Of a stretch of 64,000 nt of DNA, positions 3,001 to 12,000 are shown piece by piece. The position numbers were made by a program. This DNA is from Escherichia coli (GTDB lineage Bacteria; Pseudomonadota; Gammaproteobacteria; Enterobacterales; Enterobacteriaceae). Numbering within the stretch: position 1 is the stretch's first letter; each line of letters opens with the position of its first letter. The stretch is from NCBI RefSeq assembly GCF_030013205.1, contig NZ_CP122649.1. The stretch is one strand, 5' to 3'.

Positions 3001-6000
3001 ATAGGTGTTAAAACGGGTACAGATTTTTCCTAAAGTATTGGCTGATATAGGAAATATCTTAATAAAATTGGTACTTATTTATTATTTTATGTAAAAAATC
3101 TCTATGCTTTACTGGTTAAGTTAGATTTTTTTGTTACCCTAACCCATAAGATCTTAATGGTTACTACGCTGCAAGCGGGAAGATGGTAAGGAACTAGCGG
3201 GATCATGTGTAACTATCTGATTATTATAATAAAGGCTGACTGAATGTTATCACGCAACTCACTAATACACGGTTTACGTCGAGATCAGTTAATCGAAGTT
3301 CTGTCTATTTCTGAATTCCCAGTTGTCCTGGTCGAGAATCCCTTCATTCAGCCTAAATCAACAGGCAAAAAACCAGTCATTTTTAATATTGATGAATTTC
3401 ATGTTTCCATTGCCCCAATTTCATCGCTTAAGTACGACTGGGAGTGGGCTCCAATTGATACAATACTCATCGAAGTGGTCATTCCGCCTGCTGAAGCAGA
3501 CCTGGTAAGCGCCGAGAATGATTTCCTTCGCGATGCAGGTATTGGCCATATTCAATGCGAGCCTGGAGGCGTTTCGATACGCCGTACAGTGACATTTGTT
3601 GGGGGGATCACCGCCGACAATTTGCTGTATCAACTCAGGCTTATGTGCGTAAGTGCTTTACACTTGATTGGAGAGGAACTGGAGGATGAAAGTTAATTTT
3701 AAAAAGGTAATCCCCCTTTTAATGGTTGGTTTAACAGTGGCGGGGTCTTACTCGATCTTTAACGCAAAACCGTCGAAGCCTGACTTGTACGATTTTACTG
3801 GCAAAGTTCTTAAAACCACTTCTGTTTTCCAACCTTGTGATAAAGAATCCACACCTTCGTTGAACATCCAGATAGCAGATAACGGAAGCGTACATATCAA
3901 TGGCGTTGCATCAAAAGTTACTTTTGTTGAGAGAGTTCCGGGTAATGAAATTGCAGTTAAGTGTACGGGTCTGCAAGTCAAAAATTCCCGCCTTGTGCAT
4001 ACGAGCTCTTACACCATGATAATTTCGGAAGGAAAAGGTGGTTTTGTTATTTCGGATTTGACGCACACGCAGGATAATGAAGTTATGTCCGGTACATGGT
4101 TCTTTAAGAAGAGAGTATGACAATGAGCGATCTGTCAGCAACTGGTGCGAAGCCTCAACGGGTCAGAGTATTCAGCCAATCTGTCGCGATGGCATTCGAA
4201 GTAAATCTCGACAAAAGTCGCTCTGCTGATAATTCGGCGTTTGTAACTGAGACTGAAAAGTATTACCTGTCTCTCCAGTTTGCTCCTCCGTCTGACAATA
4301 GGGAATATGGATGGAATTCAGAGGGCAGCATTCTCATGAAACTATCCCAAAACGAAGCCATGGCGCTGGCATCTGTTTTTCTGAGAATTAAGCCGACACT
4401 AAAATTTGAAAAGCGTAAGACCACGCATCGCACTCACCAAGCCTACAAAAATATCAATATCGGACCCAACGACCGTGGGGGCCTTTTGGTAAGCGCAAGC
4501 ATTGTACCGGTTAAAATGGGGACGTTTAAGCCTTTAAATTATAACCTTCCCGTAACACAAATGGATTGCGTTTCAACAGGCTTGTTCTTGTTGGGGTTCC
4601 TGACACTTAAAATGCCTTGGGTATCCTCAGAATCGATAATTACCGCCCTTCGCCTATCTGAGTCTAAGAGCGGTCAGTGAGCTAAAAAACCTCAATTTCC
4701 TGCAAAAATTTAATGTTTTTTTTCCTCTTTACGAACAAGATTTCAGAATTTTTTAACGTAGAGTGATTCTAATTCTGCGTAAAAAAACAGGTGTTCGTCA
4801 TGAGAAAATCAGGTTTATGTTTAACCCTGTTGTTTTCTTTAATTGCTTCGATTAAATCGGTACAAGCTGAGGCAATTATGATTTCCGGAAAACTCCAGGC
4901 TGATATGCCTGCCGTCACGTTTAATCCCGGCCCGGGCGATTTTGTTGCATTCGTCAACAATAATACAATTACTGCTTCAGGTACTGGCAACGCATGCAAT
5001 GTGACGGTTGATGATCGTGCGACATCAACCGTAGATAACTTGGTCTGCTTTTTTGAATGGCTTCCAAATACCTCTGGCTTTACAGCAAACGGATTCAATT
5101 TAACAGGGATACCCAATGCGGCAGGAGAACTAAAACTGCCGTATAAAATTTCTTATTTTTCTGGATCAGAAAGGCAGAAAGTAGAAGTGGTTAATGGGGA
5201 GTATACAGTTAATGCTCTTGTACCGGTTAAACCGACGATAACGGGCCTGAAATCGTCTATGAATGGAGTGGTTCAGGATGGTTACACTCTTAAATCCTAT
5301 CTTAAGGATGAAGCAATTAGGAATGTCACTGTCTCCGTAGAGCCTCGCAATTATGTGCAATATATCTCTATCGGGTCTGGATCAGCTTGCGAAGTCGCAA
5401 TTGGTGGGAATGGCTGCACGATCGATGTTGGAAGCATCAAAGTAAGTGATTCGGATTTGCTGATGGGTTCACGGGAAATCACGGTCACTGCCAATTCGAA
5501 AAATAATTACTTTGCCCCTCCTGAAGCGCAGAAGCTAACGCTGACCTGGGATTACCGTCCTCCTGTTGTTGACCATACTCTCTGGAATTTCACGGATGAA
5601 GCTAAAACAATAAGTATTGGTGGACAGGAGATCTATACAGGAGCTAGAACGGTGGCCGTAGCCGTCAAAGTGCCTCAGGAAGAAACTGAGGGTGAGTGGT
5701 GGTTACCAACCGCTATGACGCTAACGATGAATCCTGATGGGGTGTTTAAGCCGACAACAAAAGTTACTTTAGAAGATGGTACGGTTATCGACTTTAAGCA
5801 ATCCTGGGCAACACCGCTACGTCGTACTCTTCAGCCCGTGAGCGGGCCACAGAAAGTCGGCGATGAATATCTGTATATCTTTGACTTAACAGACTTGACG
5901 AATGGTTCTTATGCCGCCTCGTTCACGGTAGAGAACAATAGCAAGAATACCTCTACGTACAATGAGCCTGAAAGCAAACTGATGCTTTCTGATAACCCAA

Positions 6001-9000: not shown

Positions 9001-12000
9001 ATGATGATAGTGGGGATTCAGCAACTCAGCGTACGACCGTTTATGGTCCGGATGAGGGCGCGTCAAAGTCCGTAGATTCAATTGAAACCTCGCAGTAAGG
9101 CAAGCTAATGAAATAACAGCCGGGGCAGAAATGTCCCGGCTTTTTTGTTTTTCACTTTTTGATGGGGTAACGTCGGGAAAGTTACTTTACATGAGTAAGA
9201 CAGCGGCCAGGACAATCACAAATCAAAGACGGAATGAAAGAAAAAAAGGCGGTAAATAATCAGAAATAGCTGGCTTTGCTGAAATAAGGAAGTACCAAAA
9301 CATGGATAATAGGTTTTAAGGTAATGTAAAAGACAGTCCATTTTGCTTTCTGATTCTGAGAGAAGTAGGTTATGAGAGAATACATACCTAAGAAGCGTGG
9401 TTTACTGAGTTTTGATTGGTACGTGCCAATAAATCTCGGAATCCTGATACTGGTTATGTTGATTTTTTTTAATCGATTTACGTTTGGTCATGGACTATTA
9501 AATGGATGTTTACCTGCTGATTTTTACATGATCGATCTGAAGGATAAATCGGTAAGTTCAGGGAATATCATAGCTTTTCATATGCCAAAATCAGTCCGTT
9601 TTATACGTGAAAATGAGAAGGTTATTAAAATTGTGGCAGGAGTCGGCGGAGATCGCCTGAGGGTCACATTGGATGGTGTTTATAATGGGAACAAATTTTA
9701 TAAAGCCAATGCCAGACGTATTTCTGTGAAATACGGCATACCTGCCGAGACCATTGAAAGAGAATTAACTATTCCGGAAGGGGAGGTCTTTTTAATTGGG
9801 CAAACGGACCACTCATGGGACTCACGTTTTTGGGGGCCGGTTAAGTTGACTTCAGTTATTGGGAAAACATATGCGATCTTTTGAATTAAAAACAACTATT
9901 AAGCCTCTGGCCTCCTGTCTGGCATTTTACGCCTTAATATCCACCGCTGTGGCTAGCCCCCAGTATCAACAGGTTGCTGATGACATTGCAAGGCAAGCTC
10001 AGGTTCTGGGCGCCCAAATACCGGTACCACACGCATCAGAAGGTCCGCTCCCGTCTGGTTCTCTGGATTCTCCTGATACCAAGAAATACATCCGCCAGGC
10101 CGAAGCTATGAAGAAAAACGGGGACCTCAGTCAGCAAACAAATCGCGGTTATGTCCCGGGTATGAATGCTGACAGTGTGCAGGCAGTTATAGACCATACG
10201 CAGGCTATCCGCGCTCAGAGTAATAACTCGGAAGCAGTTAACGACATCATTCGCAGACGTGATGAGATTCAGGGAAATTCACAGCTCAGCGAGTCTGCAC
10301 TGAAATCCGTCGAAAATAAACCAGAAGTTATGCGCAGTCAGTCTTCGAATATCGAAAAGATGTTTGGTTCATCAGGAATCACCGCCGCTGACTTCGAGCG
10401 TAAAATAGACAGCAGTCGGGAAGAGGTGCTCTCGACAGAAAACGGTATCACTATCTTTGCGTCATTTAGCTTGCCTGATTACGTCCTGGAAGATCTACTC
10501 CGTACCGCGTCAGAACATAAGGCGAGAGTGGTTTTTAATGGTCTGAAGAAAGGCACTACACGCCTCCCTGAAACTCAGGCAGCTATCAACCAGCTGGTGG
10601 TGAAGGGGAAGTTTGACTCCCCACTAATTACGATTGACCCGGACGCATTTAACCAGTACCAGATCACGCAGGTCCCGACAATAATCTCCCGTGAGCAATC
10701 CCGGTTTGCAAAAATGGTCGGCTCTTTCAACGTTGATTTCTTCCAGCGCGAACTGGCCAGAAAACCCGACCAAGATCTTTTCCCGATTGCTGGTACGACC
10801 TATCCGGTTGAAGAGAAGAGCATTATTAAAGAGCTCGAAGAGCGAGCACAGAAATACGACTGGGACGGCGCCAAGAAGAGAGCAGTCGCTGATACCTGGA
10901 AAAACCAGTACATGGTTAATCTGCCTCCCGCTCAAGAGCACAAGGAATGGCTAATCGACCCGACAATCAGGGTTACTCAGGACGTTAAAGATAAGCAGGG
11001 TCGCGTCATTGCTTCTGCTGGCGAGCTCATTAACCCACTGGCCAGGTTCCCGCAGAACCTCACAATGATAATTTTTGACCCAATGAACCCAGGGCAACTT
11101 GAGTGGGCAGAGAAGCAATATCGCCAGCGTCTTGGCAGCGGTCAGGTGATGCCGATGTTCACGCGCATCAAACAGGAAAATGGATGGGATCATTTGAATG
11201 ATCTGCGCGAAAAATTCAATGGGAAGGTGTTCAAAGTTAATGAGCAAATTATTGCTCGTTTCCAGATAAAAAACACGCCAGCGCTGATCTCCACTGAAAA
11301 AGAGAAATTCCGTATAACGCAATTCAGTGAAGCTGAAATACGTGGTATTGGAACAAAAATCGCGGCAGAGGAGAATTGATATGAAAATAGGATTTATTTT
11401 TGGGGCGCTGCTGGCCACTTGGCTGACGCTAACTTACCCGGACCAGATGAGAGAGTGTTTTAACAAAGTGGTTGCGTATATGGAAAGCGTGACAACATTC
11501 ATTACTAAATAGTGAGCGTGCCGGTGAAGAAGCTAAAAAAGTTACTTTTGGAAATATTGATCGCTGTCATGCTGTCGCTCTCGCTGCCTGCAATGACAAT
11601 GGCCGCAGATACCGGTGTCCCGGGAGCAATGTGCCAGTCAGCGGGAGTATGGCAGGGCCTAATCAAAAACATCTGCTGGAGTTGTATCTTCCCGATGCGG
11701 ATCATGGGAATTGGAGCAGCCCCTGAAGGTGCCGCCCCCTCACGCCCTGGTTGCTATTGCACGGATCAAAATGGGATACCAGAAATCGGATGGCAGCTAA
11801 GTTTTTTCCAACCAGTAAAAATTGTTGAAGTGGTGAAAAGTCCGTGGTGCAGCCCATTTTTAGAGGGAACCATGCTGCAAAAATCACAGTTCGACATCGG
11901 CAAGAGCAATACTAACCAGCCTATGACCGCAACAGAAGCCGGATTCTACGACGTACATCTCTGGGAATTCCCAATCATGACGATGTTGAAATTGCTGGTT

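Follow-up and report, generated by a model that had tools for sequence, protein, structure and literature searches.

The rsp gene of an R27-like IncHI1 plasmid, a proposed two-step export of its product, and a palindrome dispersed over the IncHI backbone

The closest described system is the IncHI1 plasmid R27. The product of its gene R0009 was found in the secretome as a 155.4-kDa protein and was named RSP, the R27-secreted protein (Huttener et al. 2019, PMC6764697). In that study, a Big_3 domain was assigned to amino acids (aa) 331-470, and a likeness of aa 1146-1391 to SiiE was detected with Phyre2. Without rsp, R27 transfer in liquid at 25 C could no longer be detected, and it was restored in trans by rsp cloned with its own promoter. 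Besides the cytoplasm, inner membrane and periplasm, RSP was seen at the cell surface and in the culture medium. TrhC, the ATPase of the type IV secretion system (T4SS), was required for its release, and the protein decorated flagella and lowered motility (PMC6764697). A second study described the partner RSP2, the interaction of RSP with TrhH, its dependence on TrhH and the pilin TrhA, and its binding to the H-pilus; a related Big protein of IncA/C plasmids was reported to promote transfer at 25 C (Huttener et al. 2022, PMC8730810). RSP was protective as an antigen, and anti-RSP nanobodies reduced transfer (Prieto et al. 2024, PMC11268884). In the IncHI2 plasmid pMG101-A, insertion of ISEc27 in rsp coincided with lost transfer (PMC8417528), and IS26 truncates rsp in tet(X4) IncHI1 fusion plasmids (PMC12115866). 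Here, we analysed a stretch of 64,000 nucleotides (nt) of Escherichia coli DNA (contig NZ_CP122649.1, assembly GCF_030013205.1), called the window below. Its long open reading frame (ORF) at 4791..9098 was identified by sequence as rsp of an IncHI1 plasmid, a gene that is already known.

RSP is already well characterised, and its use as a target for vaccines and nanobodies has been put forward before. IncHI plasmids are important vehicles of mcr-1, tet(X4) and typhoid multidrug resistance. The sections below compare the gene of the window with R27 and treat the export of its product and a palindrome that lies inside it and all over the backbone.

Identity and architecture of RSP

The window protein agreed with R27 RSP (R0009; NC_002305, 11659..15957) at 1429 of 1432 residues (99.8%) without a gap. 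The three substitutions, given from the window to R27 RSP, were conservative (T77S, D1395N and I1428V). A megablast search of 4600-9300 against PLSDB matched 283 plasmids, 218 of them at an identity of at least 99%. Among the matches listed at that level, the majority were labelled 'rsp: IncHI-type conjugal transfer protein RSP'. DNA 100% identical to that of the window occurred in plasmids with this label, put at more than 200. Window positions 1-33236 aligned collinearly with R27, which runs in the opposite direction, at an identity of 99.9%, and collinearity ended at about 52.85 kb (window 52854). We read the window as an R27-like IncHI1 backbone, and 52854-64000 is presumably accessory DNA particular to the present IncHI1 plasmid. 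The original prediction, made from the sequence alone, had matched the gene by position and size to the Big-domain protein of IncHI plasmids. This was borne out by the identity to R27 RSP, by the same Tra2 position and by the rsp annotation in PLSDB. In addition, its statement that the protein is needed for conjugation and interacts with flagella agreed with the published properties of R27 RSP (PMC6764697, PMC8730810).

The same prediction had given the ORF as 1435 aa at 4791-9098. The frame is real and runs uninterrupted on the plus strand, as seen in the ORF list and the translation; the frame and the stop were kept, but the start had to be moved. The count of 1435 aa began at a GTG at 4791. 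By direct reading of the sequence, this GTG falls within a Shine-Dalgarno-like AGGTG at 4789-4793, 6 nt 5' of an ATG at 4800. RefSeq entries for identical DNA (pMAK1 and R27) use the ATG, which gives 1432 aa. These observations suggested that ATG 4800, and not GTG 4791, is likely the start of rsp. The features of the gene and its product were as follows.

4789..4793, plus strand: Shine-Dalgarno-like AGGTG holding the GTG of the mechanical ORF call (sequence reading and inference)
4800..9098, plus strand: rsp coding sequence, 1432 aa plus stop (RefSeq coordinates in pMAK1/R27; 1429/1432 to R27 RSP)
4800..4868, plus strand: codons 1-23, predicted Sec-type signal peptide cut between VQA and EA (sequence features; N-terminus kept in homologues to about 25% identity)
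5865..6290, plus strand: Big_3_3 region, aa 356-497 (Pfam, E=4.2e-5, 23.7 bits; all-beta there in the AlphaFold2 (AF2) model)
8832..9035, plus strand: PKD-like C-terminal beta-sandwich, aa 1345-1412, with the Cys pair 1340/1357 (weak Pfam PKD match; AF2)

The N-terminus of RSP reads MRKSGLCLTLLFSLIASIKSVQA followed by EA. Its n-region was basic, its core was hydrophobic, and V-x-A stood at -3/-1. The three parts were MRK, LCLTLLFSLIASI and KSVQA before EA, and the mean Kyte-Doolittle value of the core was 2.06 over residues 6-19. The call was made by inspection. Of the 22 full-length homologues listed, 21 had an N-terminus of this type, and the exception (P0009) merely starts further 5'. The sequence at the cleavage site drifted among the homologues, as in VHA-EA, ANA-ES, VSA-ES, AFA-TS and ANA-YT, where the hyphen marks the predicted cut. 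A constant type with a drifting sequence is the pattern shown by real signal peptides, and the predicted signal peptide of the original prediction was retained on this layout and its conservation. RSP has nine cysteines. One sits in the signal peptide, and the other eight form four sequence-local pairs (66/83, 197/206, 529/554 and 1340/1357) that were invariant in the family alignment.

AF2 was run on two overlapping halves (24-800 and 640-1432) with an alignment of 20 homologues of 92-24% identity. The mean pLDDT was 86.8 for residues 24-800 and 85.0 for residues 640-1432. Both models were nearly all beta-strand with a few short helices, and disorder was confined to the first ~10 and the last ~13 residues. 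Foldseek against the PDB gave hundreds of matches to beta-sandwich chains of the Ig, FN3, cadherin and macroglobulin types, the best example being the GhpA neck (9flp, E=1.4e-19). The other matches included thick-filament and contactin Ig/FN3 chains, mastigoneme and central-pair proteins, protocadherins, the MG domains of C3 and alpha-2-macroglobulin, and S-layer proteins. The Big_3_3 region at aa 356-497 corresponded to the published 'Big 3' domain at aa 331-470, and PKD domains are recorded for distant RSP homologues. From the models, we estimate that RSP would consist of roughly 13 beta-sandwich modules of 90-140 residues each.

The check for Ig-like repeats thus had a positive outcome, through the sub-threshold Big_3_3 match, the weak PKD match and the models that matched Ig, FN3 and macroglobulin sandwich chains. 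The protein had also been described as repetitive. This was true at the level of the fold, where AF2 gave a chain of beta-sandwiches, but not at the level of the sequence. Self-BLASTP of RSP gave nothing off the diagonal even at E<=10, and Tandem Repeats Finder found no repeats in rsp.

Relatives of RSP were found by tblastn in 2960 plasmid records. They fell into an IncHI1 group at an identity of at least 99% (218 records), a 92% group (62 records) and an IncHI2 group at ~83% (1122 records). IncHI1B/pNDM-MAR-type Klebsiella plasmids were at ~50%, and ~1500 records, mostly of the IncC type, were at ~24% over aa 372-1405. In the loci L008 (50%), L009 (60%), Shewanella L010 (25%) and pNDM-TJ03 (L011), the homologue gene lay immediately 5' of the same block. 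This block held an S26 peptidase, TrbC/TraW, TraU, TraN, a reverse-strand gene and a helicase. A giant secreted protein in a conjugation gene block had been called atypical for F-like systems. This was correct for F itself, but it did not extend to the H-type transfer module of MOBH/MPF_F plasmids, where RSP homologues are conserved. The comparison of these loci indicated that the giant secreted Ig-like protein belongs to the conserved make-up of this module.

Export and role of RSP

We propose the following course of events. A Sec signal peptide (aa 1-23) would carry the RSP precursor to the periplasm, where the protein would fold and probably form disulfides. The mature protein, of ~156 kDa and elongated, would then be released through the outer membrane together with the growing H-pilus or attached to it. 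Outside the cell, it would form a flexible rod of ~13 modules that acts as a fibrillar cross-linker or adhesin on pili and flagella. In this position, RSP may slow the donor and stabilise pilus-mediated mating contacts in liquid. Two steps of export are proposed on three grounds: the predicted signal peptide, the occurrence of RSP in the periplasm and the conservation of the Cys pairs. Genes of the disulfide isomerase/DsbA type are present in IncHI transfer regions. Judged on these features, the export of RSP is most likely a two-step process, Sec followed by release coupled to pilus assembly, and not that of a one-step T4SS substrate. Pertussis toxin and Ptl provide a precedent for a Sec-exported periplasmic protein that is released by a T4SS. 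For the whole explanation taken jointly, namely the identity as rsp, the two-step pilus-coupled export and the role as adhesin or cross-linker, we estimate a probability of about 0.93. The predicted signal peptide and the Cys pairs, neither of which is discussed in the RSP papers checked, would shift the model of RSP export from a T4SS substrate to two steps, and this bears on blocking the protein or displaying it.

A one-step route would make RSP a T4SS effector-type substrate that is recruited in the cytoplasm, and its hydrophobic N-terminus would not be a cleaved Sec signal. Secretion was lost in the trhC mutant and restored by complementation, and the SSPred run of the authors pointed to type IV secretion, both of which would fit this route. 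However, we regard it as unlikely. RSP was found in the periplasm, and the authors themselves noted a periplasmic intermediate. The n-h-c layout with V-x-A was kept in kind while the sequences of the homologues drifted, and the four Cys pairs were invariant. The calculated mass was 155.8 kDa for the mature protein and 158.3 kDa for the precursor, and the published value of 155.4 kDa (PMC6764697) is nearer to the former. In addition, the pilin was also needed for release, which points to pilus assembly over a coupling-protein pathway.

By gene order, the rsp locus corresponds to Tra2 of R27 and to the operon called 'AN' in PMC7366339. In this operon, rsp stands directly 5' of essential pilus-assembly genes. 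The conjugation defect of rsp mutants could then be a polar effect on trhF, trhW, trhU and trhN, with RSP a general surface adhesin without a direct role in transfer; such a caveat was raised for the insertion in pMG101-A (PMC8417528). The transcription of the locus argued against polarity. Promoter activity 5' of R0009, a separate R0009 transcript and a secondary promoter, detected experimentally in the intergenic region between rsp and trhF (trhP), have been reported (PMC7366339). The trhF of the annotation is the trhP of the papers. In the window, one further feature followed the gene.

9118..9151, plus strand: intrinsic-terminator-like hairpin with a 10-bp stem and 7 G-C pairs, followed by a T run (terminator scan, sequence)

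The hairpin proper spans 9118-9141 and begins 20 nt 3' of the rsp stop. A terminator at this position fits the separate R0009 transcript reported in PMC7366339. A sigma-70 consensus scan of the 119-bp gap 5' of rsp gave no convincing promoter, so we relied on the published lacZ fusions (PMC7366339) for this side. Within the AN operon from htdA to trhN, rsp has its own upstream promoter region and a strong intrinsic terminator at its 3' side. Beyond the terminator and the separate promoter of trhP, cloned rsp with its own promoter complemented in trans, and anti-RSP nanobodies cut the transfer frequency. RSP homologues stayed beside the same pilus genes down to 25% identity, and for R27 the loss of liquid mating upon a non-polar deletion has in effect already been reported. 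Polarity was thus a very improbable explanation of the phenotype.

Several points weigh against the proposed identity, export and role of RSP and should be read with them. The signal peptide is a prediction judged by eye, and PMC6764697 and PMC11268884 make no mention of one for RSP, calling the route simply T4SS export. The need for TrhC, TrhH and TrhA may not be direct; RSP could, for instance, be retained or degraded without the pilus. The Pfam Big_3_3 match of 23.7 bits is below the gathering score of 27. The NCBIfam scan of RSP gave no matching model, and the PDB sequence search matched no chain, hence no relative with a solved structure. The module count was taken from the DSSP strings of the two AF2 models, in which the geometry between domains was unreliable (pTM 0.53 and 0.42). 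All RSP phenotypes come from work on the R27 protein, which is 99.8% identical to that of the window.

In the PLSDB matches NZ_MW800634.1, NZ_MW800636.1 and NC_013365.1 (pO111_1), the match to rsp and its flanks was split by IS5 or IS1203. If the insertion lies within rsp, these plasmids are natural knock-outs, and crippled self-transfer would be expected, as with ISEc27 in pMG101-A.

A palindrome dispersed over the IncHI backbone

Two copies of a dispersed palindrome had been placed inside the gene, at 5759 and 8004. Both were present and the position of the second was exact, but the first begins at 5760. In the window, the exact palindrome AAAGTNACTTT (AAAGTWACTTT) occurred 15 times, against 0.11 expected. 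The extended, symmetrised consensus was gAAAAGTWACTTTTc, in which the central W stood for A as often as for T. Allowing one mismatch added only 5 sites in the window, for a total of 20 against 2.8 expected. The same trend was observed for R27. It held 46 exact copies against 0.28 expected, and the next commonest palindrome of the 5+N+5 form had 4 copies. One-mismatch variants in R27 numbered only 25 against 7.8 expected, and several of these were within an unrelated repeat array. The copies in the window were as follows.

3914, 5760, 8004, 9178, 11538, 13039, 18051, 18732: palindrome copies, 11 bp each, exact match
25195, 28949, 32539, 37246, 37383, 44377, 52070: palindrome copies, 11 bp each, exact match
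5760..5770: copy in rsp, AAAGTTACTTT, codons 321-324 (KVTL); same alignment column in IncHI2, L008 and pNDM-TJ03
8004..8014: copy in rsp, AAAGTTACTTT, codons 1069-1072 (KVTL); same alignment column in IncHI2, L009 and pNDM-TJ03
9178..9188: copy between rsp and trhF (trhP), 183 nt 5' of trhF; kept in IncHI2 at 74% local identity

Intragenic copies made up 11 of the 15 in the window, and they were read in all three frames, as KVT[FL] (six), KLL (two) and [KE]S[ND]F (three). With copies in all three frames, the palindrome is a signal in the DNA and not a repeated peptide. By manual reading of the annotation tables, ~21 of the 46 R27 sites were intergenic, and several of the intragenic R27 sites fell in codons 1-25 of their gene. 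Of the three longest stretches of R27 without a site, two were at 72-85 kb (Tn10) and 129-141 kb (tcu, IS), and the third spans parAB to trhC. The density in rsp was that of the whole plasmid, with about one site per 4 kb.

The positions were conserved. All nine window sites with an orthologous position were kept in an IncHI2 plasmid, even at 74% local identity. L008 had 6 copies and L009 had 7, each per 24 kb, and pNDM-TJ03 had 27 copies in 44 kb, 4 of them within ~330 bp 5' of the pilin/traL operon. The IncC and Shewanella relatives examined had zero copies. The same protein-alignment columns held the exact motif in up to five IncHI-like lineages, whose proteins were ~48-79% identical. By column, the occupancy was 4/5 at rsp 326, 4/5 at rsp 1074, 5/5 at trhU 8, 3/5 at trhN 150 and 4/5 at trhI 399. 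The trhU site (11538) occupies codons 5-8, just past the start codon; the trhN site is 13039 and the trhI site 18051. At the first rsp site of L009, the peptide KVTL was kept with the codons AAA GTC ACG CTC, so KVTL can be encoded without the DNA motif. These comparisons suggested that the two rsp palindromes are not special to rsp, but old and under selection. It is scarcely credible that they merely reflect a KVTL beta-strand peptide without meaning at the DNA level, since the fact that both copies read in one frame as KVTL, conserved in the homologues, is outweighed by the excess of copies in the window and in R27, by their spread over three frames and intergenic DNA, by the L009 codons and by exact motifs in the same columns of lineages that are only ~50% identical.

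Most simply, the 15-bp exact palindrome would be the site of a dimeric DNA-binding protein. Its distribution is like that of other dispersed palindromes, namely the KorB operators (OB) of IncP-1 plasmids and, on chromosomes, parS, the Noc sites (NBS), the SlmA sites (SBS) and matS. Whether the IncHI copies are ancient conserved sites of a DNA-binding protein of the IncHI backbone, forming a plasmid-wide cis network like that of KorB and OB, we judge to be evenly balanced. An RNA or DNA hairpin was ruled out on the ground that 5-bp arms with a 1-nt loop cannot fold.

A role as the Par1 centromere was probably ruled out by an array of 52-54-bp repeats beside parA and by the lack of a palindrome within ~10 kb of parAB. 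R27 ParB (Par1) is of the P1 type (PDB 1zx4, E=4e-17). The array comprises ~30 tandem repeats (core GGGGTTAAATGCCACGCTACGCGACCAGC) at L003:600-2850, which is R27 25600-27850, directly 5' of parA, and these repeats look like the Par1 centromere array. The array lies in an unannotated 3-kb gap just past the left end of the window.

Two candidates for the protein behind the palindrome were considered. The first is the circuit of HtdA, TrhR and TrhY. Of the 181 R27 genes expressed, 139 are derepressed when htdA is mutated (PMC7366339), and the palindrome could be the cis element behind this near-global derepression. Three copies cluster around the trhR promoter/oriT region. HtdA and HtdK homologues co-occurred with the motif in L008 and L009 and were undetectable in the motif-free L010, which is a single negative case. 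A simple TrhR/TrhY operator found little support, as the F-operon promoter region carries no copy. Pfam gave no matches on HtdA, HtdF, putative TrhR and putative TrhY. The second candidate is a divergent, weak ParB/Spo0J-like helix-turn-helix protein, the second ParB-like protein of R27, encoded outside the window at L003:20191-21348 (R27 45191-46348). Its Pfam HTH_ParB match was at threshold, its match to Spo0J (1vz0) had E=0.05, and GHCRLKA replaces the arginine patch GERRxRA.

Two further observations concern individual copies. At 18718-18742, in the intergenic region after trhI and ~300 bp 5' of the next gene, 3 bp separate a copy with one mismatch (CAAGTAACTTT) from an exact one (AAAGTTACTTT); the two may be an operator pair. 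At 36900-37859, a gene that carries in R27 the label 'DNA replication terminus site-binding protein' (Tus-like) contains two palindromes, at 37246 and 37383.

Full-text literature searches for the 11-mer or an IncHI palindrome found no description, although subscription journals could hold one, and the study of R27 regulation (PMC7366339) mentions no motif or binding site. Few sequence signals of the plasmid are as strong as the palindrome, which is conserved in IncHI1, IncHI2 and IncHI1B-type plasmids. It deserves a follow-up of its own, compared with the known gene rsp. If it is an operator or loading site of a global regulator, it would give a handle on the coordination of transfer, maintenance and cost in IncHI plasmids.

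Neighbouring genes and comparison with known systems

The gene order around rsp was parM, the parR-like gene, htdA, htdF, htdK, rsp, trhF (trhP), trhW, trhU and trhN, the same as in R27 and pMAK1. The location between partition/regulatory genes and pilus-assembly genes, as first described, was confirmed by the agreement of annotation and NCBIfam matches. R27 has two partition modules, and this was used in assigning window 924..2679 as Par2.

924-1958, plus strand: parM, Par2 partition module (annotation, Pfam families on homologous contigs)
2002-2679, plus strand: parR-like gene, 225 aa, Par2 module (annotation, Pfam families on homologous contigs)
3244-3696, plus strand: htdA, transfer repressor (pMAK1/R27 annotation of identical DNA, PMC7366339)
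3686-4120, plus strand: htdF (pMAK1/R27 annotation of identical DNA, PMC7366339)
4117-4680, plus strand: htdK (pMAK1/R27 annotation of identical DNA, PMC7366339)
9372..15775, plus strand: trhF/trhP (S26 signal-peptidase family), trhW (TrbC+TraW), trhU (TraU) and trhN (TraN) (NCBIfam, annotation)

HtdK matched Pfam Whirly (PF08536), a fold that binds single-stranded DNA, with 24.6 bits and E=2.5e-5, just over the gathering score of 23. The L008 homologue of HtdK also carries a weak Whirly match.

The palindrome resembles the KorB-OB system in being short, exact, odd-length and backbone-wide, in occurring at promoters and within genes, and in keeping its position in diverged relatives. It is unlike KorB-OB in having its own sequence, gAAAAGTWACTTTTc, in lying away from parAB, and in that its binder is represented by candidates only.

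For the export of RSP, the two-step model differs from the one-step T4SS route implied in PMC6764697. The pertussis system differs in two respects from that proposed for RSP. The toxin is unrelated to RSP, and Ptl is an effector-only P-type T4SS, whereas the release of RSP appears tied to F-type pilus biogenesis through TrhH and TrhA.

SiiE of Salmonella, exported by a type I secretion system (T1SS), and SraP of S. aureus are all-beta strings of Ig-like domains, as is RSP. The published Phyre2 likeness of the RSP C-terminus to these two proteins (PMC6764697) was confirmed in general terms by the resemblance of the fold in Foldseek. RSP is unlike them in its signal peptide, in the lack of T1SS gene neighbours and of sequence-repeated modules, and in its pilus-dependent export. 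Membership in the class of giant T1SS adhesins was ruled out by the signal peptide, by neighbours that are only tra and par genes, by the lack of sequence repeats and by the lack of a PDB sequence match. The intimin/invasin class (type Ve) was also rejected. Pfam matched no LysM domain or outer-membrane barrel, and the N-terminal half was modelled as consecutive beta-sandwiches.

RSP2 (R0055) of R27 is likewise encoded by the plasmid, secreted and equipped with Big domains; it binds flagella and pili and co-precipitates with RSP (PMC8730810). It has 794 aa with DUF4165 plus Big_1/Big_3. Its gene at R27 57498-59882, between Tra1 and Tra2, is specific to IncHI1 and lies outside the window.

The IncC Big protein (ALG87338.1 of pKAZ3; WP_000606835.1) shared ~24% identity with aa 372-1405 of RSP at E ~1e-55 and is encoded inside a MOBH/MPF_F transfer region, as RSP is. 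It is longer (1828 aa; L012:17538-23024 of NZ_CP031362.1), and its gene lies between traA and dsbC-traC, not 5' of the S26 peptidase. The IncC locus has no palindrome copies.

The RSP alleles of IncHI2 (R478/pMG101 type) and IncHI1B plasmids are full-length, with aa identities of ~83-92% and ~50%, respectively. They occupy the same slot, after htdK-like genes and before the S26 peptidase, trhW, trhU and trhN, and carry palindromes at the same codons. The gene of the IncHI1B type has no annotation beyond 'Ig-like domain-containing protein', and IncHI2 plasmids are without the partner gene rsp2 (PMC8730810).

R27 RSP is the closest of all. The host plasmid of the window differs from R27 in its accessory DNA past ~52.8 kb. 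The length of the protein, the flanking genes and the intergenic architecture are the same, and rsp of the window and rsp of R27 are practically the same gene.

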